Shown piece after piece: positions 6,901 to 63,632 of a stretch of 64,000 nt of DNA (position 1 is the stretch's first letter; the number at the start of each line of letters is the position of its first letter). This DNA comes from Eledone cirrhosa (taxonomy: Eukaryota), in the NCBI GenBank assembly GCA_964016885.1, contig OZ024766.1, positions 1,488,001 to 1,552,000 on the forward strand. Reading direction: 5' to 3'. Under the pieces are notes generated by a model. The model saw only the letters and a list, made by a program, of their open reading frames with translations, was not told where the DNA came from and did no database searches. The translations under genes and the position numbers were made by a program.

Positions 6901-9900
6901 CCAGGACATAAGAAGCCTGTTAAGACATAAAATAGAGACATGGTGTGATGTGGCAGCATTTATGCAGGCCTGGGTACCCCTAGAGCCTGACTGTAGCGAT
7001 GCCAGGACATAAGAGGCCTGTTAAGACATAAAATAGAGACATGGTGTGATGTGGTGGCATTTATGCAGGCCTGGGTACCCCTAGAGCCTGACTGTAGCGA
7101 TGCCAGGACATAAGAAGCCTGTTAAGACATAAAATAGAGACATGGTGTGATGTGGCAGCATTTATGCAGGCCTGGGTACCCCTAGAGCCTGACTGTAGCG
7201 ATGCCAGGACATAAGAGGCCTGTTAAGACATAAAATAGAGACATGAGGTGATGTGGTGGCATTTATGCAGGCCTGGGTACCCCTAGAGCCTGACTGTAGC
7301 GATGCCAGGACATAAGAAGCCTGTTAAGACATAAAATAGAGACATGGTGTGATGTGGTGGCATTTATGCAGGCCTGGGTACCCCTAGAGCCTGACTGTAG
7401 CGATGCCAGGACATAAGAAGCCTGTTAAGACATAAAATAGAGACATGGTGTGATGTGGTGGCATTTATGCAGGCCTGGGTACCCCTAGAGCCTGACTGTA
7501 GCGATACCAGGACATAAGAGGCCTGTTAAGTGATGTGGTGGCATTTATGCCTAACAGACCACACCCACATACAGGCTGACCAATCACACACCCACACCAA
7601 CAAACCAACAAACCACACCTTCATACAGACCACACCTACCAACAGACCACACCTACCAACAGACCACACCCTCACACAGACAATACAAAGGTCCAAAGCT
7701 GATAAAAAAGGAAGTTAACCCTCACCTTCTCCGTAACCTCCTTGACGTGGGCATTGAGGTCCCTCTTACAGAACTCATCCGAGGGGTTAGACTGCATGTA
7801 CCCAGCATCTTGGGCCAACGAAATGCAGCTTTTGCCCAATTCTATCACAGAGTTCTTTATACGATTTGTTACCTCGACATTGGACGCAGTCATACAGGCA
7901 CCACGAGAGTTGCTGGCCAGCTGGCGATAATCTCGTGTGAGTTTGTTGGCCAAAGCTCCGAGGTCGGACATGTTCGTCTCATTCTTACCAAGCTGTGAAA
8001 TAATAATAATTGTTTCTATTATTATAGAGAGGTAGAGAGAGATAGATAGAGAGAGAGAGAGGTAGAGCGAGAGAGATAGATAGAGATAGAGAGATAGAGA
8101 GAGAGAGGTAGAGAGAGAGACATAGAGATAGAGGTAGAGAGAGAGATAGAGAGAGAGAGAGATAGAGAGAGAGATAGAGAGATAGAGAGAGAGAGAGGTA
8201 GAGAGAGAGATAGAGCAAGAGACATAGAGATAGAGGTAGAGAGAGAGATAGAGAGAGAGAGAGAGAGAGATAGAGAGAGAGATAGATAGAGAGAGGTAGA
8301 GAGATAGATAGAGAGAGATAGAGAGATAGATAGAGAGAGATAGATAGAGAGAGGTAGAGAGAGAGATAGATAGATAGAGAGGTAGAGAGAGAGAGAGAGA
8401 GAGAGAGAGAGAGAGATAGATAGATAGAGATAGAGAGATAGATAGAGAGAGATAGATAGAGGTAGAGATAGATAGATAGAGAGAGATAGATAGATAGAGA
8501 TAGATACAGAGAGATAGAGAGATAGATAGAGAGAGATAGATAGAGAGGTAGAGAGAGAGATAGATAGATAGAGAGAGAGAGAGAGATACGTACCATATCT
8601 TGTGCAGAGCTGGCAATCTGTCGGGCCAGACGTACCATGGAGGTCTGGTAATCTACATAGGACTTACCATCAACCACATCTATATTGAGGTCGGTCTGTG
8701 GAGGCAGCAGAAGAGATGGACATTATACAGTGATGATGATGATGATGATGTGTGTATGTGTGTGTGTGTGTGTGTATGATGAGTATATGTGAGTGTGTGT
8801 GTGTGTGTGTGTGTGTGAGTATATGTGAGTGTGTGTGTGTGTAGATGAAAAGAGAGGAAGTAAGACGGAGGGAGTGAGTGAGAAAACGTGCATAAGAATA
8901 GATATGTATGTATACACACATATATATATATATATACACACATATATATATATACACACACATATATATACATATATATATATATACACACACATATATA
9001 TACATATATATATATATATATATATATATATAGTAATAATAATAAAATTGAAGACTAAAATCCAAAGAGGGCTCGATAAGGATAAATATATATAAAATAT
9101 ATAAGAACTGTAGAGCAAATATTTATTAAAATAACAGATTAAAGTTTAAGCAAAGAATCGCTGCTTTCACCCTTAACGGGATCTTCTGAAACTAACAAAG
9201 TCAATCTGTAAACGCAGAAGTGGATATTTCAAAAAACGTTGCAACCGGAGGAAGACAGGAAGACGATACTTTGGTTCTTGGTAACGTTCGCTGACAAAGA
9301 ACGGGAAAAAACGAATAATACGCTCTTATTAATGACGTATTATTCGTTTTTTCCCGTTCTTTGCCAGCGAACGTTACCACGAACCAAAATATCGTCTTCC
9401 TGTCTTCCTCCGGTTGCAACATTTTTGGAAATATCCAGTTCTGCGTTTACAGATTGACTTTGTTAGTTTCAGAAGATCCCGTTAAGGGTGAAAGCAGCGA
9501 TTCTTTGCTTAAACTTTAATCTGTTATTTTAATAAATATATATATATATGACCAAATTAGCAGCGGAGGTGGGAGTTCTGAAAATACAGTAGCCAGGGTA
9601 GGAATGGGATGGAAGAGGTTCAGGGAACTACTGCCACTGCTGGCTGCAAAAGGCTTCTCCCTCAAAATGAAAGGCAGACTGTATGATGCGTGTATCCGAA
9701 CAGCAATGTTACATGGTAGTGAGACCTGGGCACTGGAGGTGGAAGACTTACGTAGATTAGAAAGAAACGAAGCCTGCATGCTCCGATGGATGTGTAATAG
9801 AAATATACGCGAACAGCAAAGTATAAACAAATTGAGAGAGAGACTGAGCATAAGAGGAATCAAATGCTATGTGCAGGAGAGGAGGTTGCATTGGTATGGA

Positions 9901-63632: not shown

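Follow-up and report, generated by a model that had tools for sequence, protein, structure and literature searches.

We analysed the hammerhead ribozyme motifs of a talin-containing, 64-kb stretch of contig OZ024766.1 (positions 1,488,001 to 1,552,000; termed the window) within the 3.0-Gb genome of Eledone cirrhosa. Two kinds of motif are found there, all of them between talin exons. The type I motifs very probably are 3' ends of Penelope-like elements (PLEs) cut at their 5' side, and the motif at 18203 a worn tandem element without an open reading frame (ORF), which carries a permuted hammerhead that is predicted to be self-cleaving. With less confidence, we also propose that Naiad elements possess a permuted hammerhead.

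Type I hammerheads and Penelope-like elements

A first-pass annotation of the window had listed ten hammerhead cores. All ten were found, offset by 0-52 nt from where it had placed them, and their CUGANGA boxes start at 10958+, 16057+, 24285+, 24436+, 40470-, 40539+, 40740-, 49179+, 57930- and 63286+. A scored type I descriptor (CUGANGA, stem II, GAAA, helix III, NUH, stem I) accepts seven of them, compared to a mean of 0.025 (maximum 1) in 40 local dinucleotide shuffles, and the motifs are thus more frequent than in shuffled sequence. A stricter first descriptor accepts five (shuffle mean 0.08-0.1). The three motifs that fail (10958, 16057 and 24285) are recognisable, damaged copies of families. 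Absent from the earlier list were 9188-, 9470+ and 10820+, which have the core CAGAAGA, as well as 32285+, 49059+ and 56959+. The list of half or degenerate copies held for 11155-, 26823-, 32579- and 51881- and for the palindrome centres 22530-/22599+, 37375-/37390+ and 57663-/57716+. The palindrome at 18342-18482, however, has no recognisable hammerhead, and the motif beside it (18203-18292) is of a different, permuted kind. An Rfam scan of the window gave no hammerhead family among the 150 of 479 matches listed.

In agreement with the annotation, the motifs are minimal type I hammerheads with a palindromic helix III and fall into several unrelated families. Helix III was left unscored in the search. 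Nevertheless, Watson-Crick pairing is seen at 36 of 45 symmetric interior positions across 15 distinct sequences, against 11.3 positions under the null, and none of 10000 randomisations reaches the observed value. Families G and K have a stable, non-palindromic helix III instead. Stems also covary among genomic copies: in stem II of the D superfamily 6 of 9 pairs are compensatory, with 54 compensatory cells compared to 20.6 in shuffles (0/500), the count of compensatory pairs alone being no better than in shuffles (340/500).

The same descriptor was applied to unselected DNA, where it found 12 matches per 200 kb in the five largest contigs and 18 per 200 kb in twenty others. The DNA beside the window on the same contig contributed 13 matches in 160 kb, and shuffles of these 560 kb contained none. 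The resulting 43 matches per 560 kb predict 4.9 in the window, in which seven are seen (P(>=7) = 0.22). The proposed concentration of ribozyme elements in talin introns was therefore mistaken, because the density is genome-wide. The link to (TA)n tracts, on the other hand, exceeds chance, since a TA/CA run lies at most 150 nt 3' of 29 of 35 hammerheads in unselected DNA, compared to 18% of 1831 random points. As a side result, extrapolation from the 30 matches in 400 kb indicates that the genome carries a very high load of hammerheads, roughly 2e5 motifs (about 2.2e5, 1.5-3.2e5; the range is Poisson only, and the samples were taken at round coordinates with small contigs over-represented). For other animals the literature gives 126,247 motifs (axolotl) and over 6000 (a coral; both PMC7229834), and for Xenopus about 9000 (PMC4209133). 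The comparison of our 2.2e5 with the 4000-9000 quoted by Cervera and de la Pena, 2014 (PMC4209133) is a rough one, as the descriptors differ.

The annotation had also connected the motifs with PLEs, and families A, B, C, D, K and L indeed trace to reverse transcriptase (RT)/GIY-YIG endonuclease (EN) ORFs elsewhere in the genome. In the window itself no PLE ORF is present (tblastn with eight PLE proteins, no match), as had been noted. The designation as mini-elements does not hold, since in longer copies the motif follows GIY-YIG (six families) and RT (four); the retrozyme reading that came with it fits only family J, whose copy at 18203 the annotation had regarded as a degenerate half. Thus, the window holds truncated ends of autonomous PLEs, because longer copies put the motif downstream of the GIY-YIG/RT coding region. 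In family A, RT, a CX4CxxC linker and GIY-YIG finish about 530 nt before the core in locus L141, whose 3' region is shared by L142 and L146. The family C motif lies 244-346 nt past the EN match in 15 of 25 loci, and in L314 and L315 ORFs of 812-950 aa are followed by a C-type core. For family D, the stretch from EN to hammerhead is unbroken over 3.3 kb in L313 (RT-EN), and other copies cover it piecewise, while the family K core is found about 850-930 nt past the EN ORF in 6 of 20 loci. Families B, K and L have a CxCX5C linker, CxxC and CxH around the EN E/N, and DKT in K (L149, L316, L322, L336, L355), motifs that place all three in the Hydra clade. Families A, C and D appear to be of Neptune/Nematis type. 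Pfam searches with eight PLE peptides detected RT in two and GIY-YIG in one, and gave no match for the Hydra-type pieces. What tells against this origin is that families E, F, G and H and the copy at 32285 lack an ORF link; a parent ORF was looked for in E and F only, and was not found.

The copies have the form of PLE insertions. Their 3' end is fixed and borders a TA/CA run (A, 25 of 28 copies; B, 26 of 28; D, 21 of 24), whereas the 5' end is variable; family C was left out of this count because its first (TA)n is internal. The inverted structure described earlier was recovered: no more than 450 nt away, a partner is present for 11 of 28 copies of family B and 15 of 24 of family D, compared to none of 28 copies of family A. 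In families D, F and K there are two 3' ends, which corresponds to the tail known for PLEs. 5' truncation, inverted copies, tails and a preference for (TA)n have all been described for these elements (PMC8557442, PMC11167929). The type I motifs are known PLE biology: the observation was right and the emphasis on talin wrong. As in the PLE hammerheads of Cervera and de la Pena (PMC4209133), we find type I order, a short palindromic helix III and an additional base following A9; one genome contains many families unrelated to each other, most copies are truncated and single, and opposite-strand pairs lie 100-700 bp apart. In contrast to theirs, the core is fixed as U4A in family K, where helix III has 5 bp, and is mostly U4C in family F, and stem II reaches up to about 75 nt. 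The EN+ PLEs of Craig et al., 2021 (PMC8557442) share the C-terminal GIY-YIG, the CxCX5C (B, K, L) or CX4CxxC (A, C, D) linker, and the insertion features just listed, but their tails measure 30-40 nt compared to about 60-100 nt here. Penelope expansions in cephalopods have been reported (PMC13282606, PMC8967140), and the word ribozyme does not occur in the available text of either paper.

PLE RNA was likely copied into (TA)n by target-primed reverse transcription, with the 5' side cut short. From published PLE biology, a tail would arise by priming at two internal sites, palindromes would form when two truncated cDNAs join head to head, and helix III would form only in a dimer or with the element's protein, so that single copies in a pre-mRNA would cut little. 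Three of the seven canonical intact cores lie on the talin sense strand (40470, 40740 and 57930) and four on the antisense strand. Core 40470- is predicted to be trapped with its inverted partner in a hairpin of -147 kcal/mol, and helix III of 57930 and 40740 is too short for a monomer. Little cleavage of the talin pre-mRNA by these motifs is expected from such folding considerations.

Two other accounts of the motifs were weighed. By the first, dedicated non-autonomous mini-elements would have amassed in talin introns and might act on the transcript. Ten cores in 64 kb without a PLE ORF in the window would fit, as would three intact cores on the sense strand, but a density equal to that of unselected DNA, 5' ends that vary freely and lead to ORFs elsewhere, and the four of seven antisense cores make this account highly improbable. 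By the second, the motifs would be chance matches in AT-rich, repeat-rich sequence, and CUGANGA alone is indeed common, for example in a 31-nt satellite at 52200-53200. However, shuffled sequence gave 0.025 type I matches and, per 1.74 Mb, 0.5 permuted ones. Together with homologous copies that number hundreds to thousands, this reduces the chance explanation to a negligible one.

A proposed permuted hammerhead with a split stem II

In the motif at 18203-18292 (+) GAAA precedes CUGAUGA, and a 5-bp stem III, GUA and a 6-7-bp stem I form only when the site block comes first. The block order is thus S, G, C (site, GAAA, CUGAUGA). Reading 18230-18272 as a type II hammerhead was ruled out, since stem I would have only one pair. 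Rfam scans gave no match for 18190-18310 and two weak, unrelated matches for an M motif. A permuted-order descriptor found 24 matches in 1.74 Mb of fetched DNA, compared to 0.5 in shuffled sequence; ten of these are family J, fetched on purpose, 13 are in or resemble other repeat families, and one is likely due to chance. Five permuted families were recognised in the genome (J, M1, M2, N and O), with 661-1966 first-look candidates each, which are not copy numbers, and an exact 28-nt J pattern occurs 80 times genome-wide.

J, M1 and M2, unlike families A-D, K and L, are ORF-less head-to-tail units of a few hundred nt. Units of 420-650 nt were seen in 8 of 44 J loci, 16 of 30 M1 loci (565-648 nt) and 6 of 30 M2 loci, and no linked PLE ORF was found upstream of the copies of these families. 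As in PLE insertions, the copies adjoin (TA)n on their 3' side, and some have inverted partners. One M-type pattern had no match in metagenome and viral contigs. Of the sequencing runs searched with the M unit, three, guessed to be RNA from other organisms, gave no contig, and one of undetermined kind covered it.

[quoted passage not shown] The first pair of stem II (10.1-11.1) uses the base after A9, and all its other pairs involve the motif's 5' end. The connecting helix adjoins stem III with both of its strands and is separated from stem I by 0-1 nt. In an alignment of the M superfamily (18 sequences) 92% of the cells are paired and 14 of 24 pairs are compensatory, which none of 500 shuffles reaches; the compensatory set includes the connecting helix (5 of 6 pairs) and 10.1-11.1, neither of which the descriptor required. 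A cross-family alignment (17 sequences of M, N, O and J) contains 103 compensatory cells compared to 35.5 in shuffles. In both alignments stems I and III covary as well as the helix that links stems I and II. A15.1-U16.1 is present in 17 of 17 sequences, and GA-GA, GAAA and the unpaired H17 are kept while all stems turn over. Moreover, the junction of stem III and the connecting helix in M1, M2, N and O contains a 3-nt bulge and then GA facing GA (41 of 43 M1, 33-34 of 41 M2 and 8 of 9 O copies; N by eye), a pattern that we take to match the kink-turn consensus. Family J has a 2x4 loop at this position. The permuted hammerhead is therefore well supported, at the level of comparative structure, in the sister families, and the motif at 18203 appears to be a permuted hammerhead of a new arrangement with a split stem II.

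Several observations weigh against this interpretation. The cross-family count of compensatory pairs does not exceed shuffles (40/500), and the 5' stem-II helix covaries only weakly (2 of 5 pairs). In family J covariation is no better than in shuffles (pairing 100/500, compensatory cells 172/500); this is expected because its copies decay from one source, yet it also offers no support. Alignment A4 retains three J rows that are in part misaligned. Related sequences can exceed a shuffle control without any structure. Family J lacks the kink-turn letters and shows a C-C mismatch in place of pair 10.1-11.1, and U4C occurs in about half of the J copies and in most N copies. Nested-only folding of the window copy prefers other hairpins. 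Most of the 5' stem-II strand of that copy is lost and it is antisense to talin, and it is therefore probably inactive. Finally, cleavage by the hammerhead of an anole PLE needs protein and is not required for insertion in vitro (PMC11167929).

The motif would fold in cis, with a connecting helix that starts where stem III ends and leads back to the ends of stems I and II; in the four families with its signature, a kink-turn would let this helix fold back. The cut would fall after the H of NUH, in the window copy after A18223 by prediction. Tandem transcripts would yield unit-length RNA, reinserted by a PLE protein, possibly that of a Naiad.

Two alternatives concern activity. The permuted motif might act only as a strand-swapped dimer, in which the CUGAUGA block of one RNA or unit docks on the S and G blocks of another. 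Most other hammerheads here need a partner (palindromic helix III), permuted units are often in tandem, and stem III together with the connecting helix forms a simple hairpin. On the other hand, the connecting helix enters stem I directly, with 0-1 nt between, the kink-turn letters are placed where folding in cis needs a bend back, and published SGC and CSG forms cleave in single constructs during transcription (PMC10085705). We consider the dimer unlikely. Somewhat less likely still is that the structure has been kept because the PLE protein binds it or uses it for priming, and that cleavage has been lost. U4C in N and J and the broken 10.1-11.1 pair in J would agree with this, as would hammerhead mutants of the anole PLE that still insert in vitro (PMC11167929). 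However, GA-GA, GAAA, A15.1-U16.1 (17/17) and the unpaired H17 are kept, and a pure scaffold would not need catalytic letters. We therefore prefer a permuted hammerhead that would cleave in cis.

Type SGC and CSG hammerheads from metatranscriptomes have been shown to cleave in vitro, during transcription of single constructs (Eckert et al., 2023, PMC10085705). They share with the present motif a non-circular block order, a full catalytic core, a 3-nt link between stems I and II, and a helix that joins these stems. In the published forms stem II follows straight after CUGAnGA, whereas here only 10.1-11.1 follows A9 and the rest comes from the 5' end. The permuted form thus works like SGC but is not filed as a member, because stem II is not directly 3' of CUGAnGA. 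The published examples available to us are metatranscriptome contigs. The present motif belongs instead to an animal retroelement, its connecting helix is joined to stem III on both strands, and four families have the kink-turn signature. The available alignment part of PMC10085705 holds Ga-numbered contigs only, and animal, mollusc, metazoa, Octopus and kink are not mentioned in the parts of its text or supplement that were searched. A CSG descriptor had no match in 2.03 Mb of fetched DNA. Our results place non-circular permutations, known earlier from metatranscriptomes with unknown hosts, in animal retroelements, and the split stem II breaks the assumption of Eckert et al. that stem II is uninterrupted, which puts this arrangement outside descriptor searches.

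J, M1 and M2 resemble non-LTR (long terminal repeat) retrozymes (PMC7229834; bioRxiv 2026.07.22.740005) in being ORF-less head-to-tail units with one hammerhead each and PLE-type insertion marks. Retrozyme units, however, measure 170-450 nt and each carry a type I hammerhead, compared to 420-650 nt and a permuted hammerhead here; J, M, N and O all have S-G-C order. The available part of bioRxiv 2026.07.22.740005 treats type I motifs only. In the literature searched, which excluded most subscription papers, we found no non-circular hammerhead in PLEs, Naiads or retrozymes.

Proposed permuted hammerheads in Naiad elements

In the available text, Craig et al. (PMC8557442) report no canonical hammerhead in Naiads, and 8 of 54 are tagged HHR_half_core. 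We read the Naiad consensus file by eye at CUGAUGA (60 of 62 places), CUGACGA (15 of 23) and CUGAGGA (15 of 25), leaving out CUGAAGA. At these places the four-helix split-stem form was seen in at least nine records (Naiad_Obim, _Ovul, _Amil, _Aacu, _Anas and four further ones) and partially in a tenth. Three of the nine are Acropora records, and the two octopus ones (Naiad_Obim and Naiad_Ovul) also show the kink-turn letters. Type CSG, with the order C, S, G and stem II directly after A9, was seen in at least six records of the nematode part. About seven other Naiad 3'-region matches, among the matches listed, fit neither form at a glance. By eye, the split-stem and CSG forms would represent one circular block order opened at different points.

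On balance we favour the view that Naiads have a permuted hammerhead that descriptors missed, CSG in nematodes and split-stem-II in corals and cephalopods (with a kink-turn in the latter) being one circuit opened differently, and that the thousands of ORF-less tandem passengers in this genome would form a retrozyme class. This view is weakened by the fact that motif searches found no Naiad ORF in this genome. Three short Naiad-derived patterns had no match either, compared to 3352 for a control pattern, although this does not show absence. An N-terminal GIY-YIG combined with a C-terminal RT was not seen upstream of J or M copies. Since the genome yielded no Naiad ORF, we do not class J and M as Naiads, and their link to them rests on shared architecture.

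From the absence of canonical hammerheads in Naiads, Craig et al. argued that hammerheads may merely parasitise PLEs (PMC8557442). A conserved permuted hammerhead in Naiads, if true, would remove this argument, and what the ribozyme does in PLE transposition could then be tested in the clade that is most abundant.

Inventory of the window and its talin gene

The positions of all elements and of the host gene are given in Table 1. The exact 27-nt core of family A occurs 3352 times genome-wide, and the commonest core of family F is CCGACGA (14 of 29). Family K appears as a young, high-copy Hydra family whose copies are 98-99% identical. Its CAGAAGA core (U4A), with a 5-bp helix III, is found in 44 of 45 copies and represents either a core change that the ribozyme tolerates or an inactive ribozyme carried by an active element; a tolerated U4C is noted in PMC3088659, in the available part of which no U4A was seen.

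In family G loci (e.g. L076, L091, L197, L236) most insertions are truncated within a few bases of CUGAUGA and paired head to head. The reverse transcriptase may stop at stem II and the core, and the window palindromes at 22560, 37382 and 57690 point the same way. Another PLE family (3' UTRs, i.e. untranslated regions, of L031, L042, L053 and L078) has, by eye, a type I hammerhead with U3-A8 core covariation.

Table 1. Hammerhead-related elements and host gene in the window (positions count from the first letter of the window).
Feature	Position	Strand	Remarks
Talin gene	3824..63669	-	About 40 exons, running past both window ends; host of all elements; tblastn exon map
Family K palindrome	9033..9536	.	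Hydra-clade PLE 3' end; 415-bp palindrome plus tail; CAGAAGA (U4A) at 9188- and 9470+
Family K copy, damaged	10778..10886	+	Core at 10820
Family F hammerhead	10938..11087	+	Long stem II; core 10958
Family G copy	11105..11175	-	Truncated inside core
Family E hammerhead	16047..16100	+	Core 16057; helix III pair 15.2-16.2 broken in copy; old family
Family J permuted hammerhead	18203..18292	+	Order site, GAAA, CUGAUGA; predicted cut after A18223; antisense to talin
Family B relative	22416..22643	.	Head-to-head halves, GAAA at 22530- and 22599+; CUGAUGA box gone
Family C partial tandem	24236..24500	+	Cores 24285 (stem I damaged) and 24436
Family H half copy	26763..26869	-	Long stem II; complete similar motif in locus L286
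Further hammerhead	32285..32330	+	Stem I 5' strand lost
Family A copy, decayed	32525..32581	-	
Family L palindrome	37315..37450	.	Arms both truncated within stem II; Hydra-type EN upstream in L355
Family B (Hydra clade) inverted insertion	40321..40621	.	Two intact hammerheads, cores 40470- and 40539+
Family D 3' end	40636..40866	-	Intact hammerhead 40740; inverted tail on 5' side; sense to talin
Family K half copy (49059), then family C copy	49055..49498	+	C core 49179
Family G copy	51846..51902	-	Core 51900; damaged stem I
Family C half copy	56955..57175	+	Truncated immediately before GAAA
Family D relative, palindrome	57603..57776	.	Truncated in core and stem II
Family A 3' end	57815..57997	-	Minimal hammerhead, helix III ACGU, core 57930; sense to talin
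Family C copy	63237..63452	+	Core 63286

The talin exons were mapped by tblastn, which matched 48 segments in the window, several of them tandem echoes of exon ends; oyster talin is 74% identical to one exon. Tandem repeats with units of 101 nt (6754-7530) and 135/255 nt (34647-35267) copy the 3' end of a talin exon and multiply its splice donor, which yields possible alternative donors. A single-copy 5S rRNA (106 bits) lies at 30169-30287 (-) in a talin intron. The 31-nt satellite at 52200-53200 carries CUGAUGA on the minus strand in most units, in total dozens of cores without a downstream hammerhead, and naive motif counts are therefore inflated.

Long perfect hairpins in introns (9122-9536, 22482-22643, 37315-37450, 40388-40621 and 57603-57776) would, in a cephalopod host, be candidate substrates for A-to-I editing. 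Two pairs of tail-to-tail inverted repeats are 100% identical, 21603-21703 / 22416-22516 facing each other across a 712-nt (TA)n and 18342-18380 / 18444-18482 across a 60-nt (TA)n, possibly as the result of fold-back replication or as an assembly artefact. A general repeat search of the window was dominated by microsatellites. Finally, fragments at 9520-9930 (+), 31228-31500 (-) and 61630-61770 (+) are unrelated to the hammerhead elements and resemble what we take to be C-termini of RTE-type LINE (long interspersed nuclear element) reverse transcriptases.

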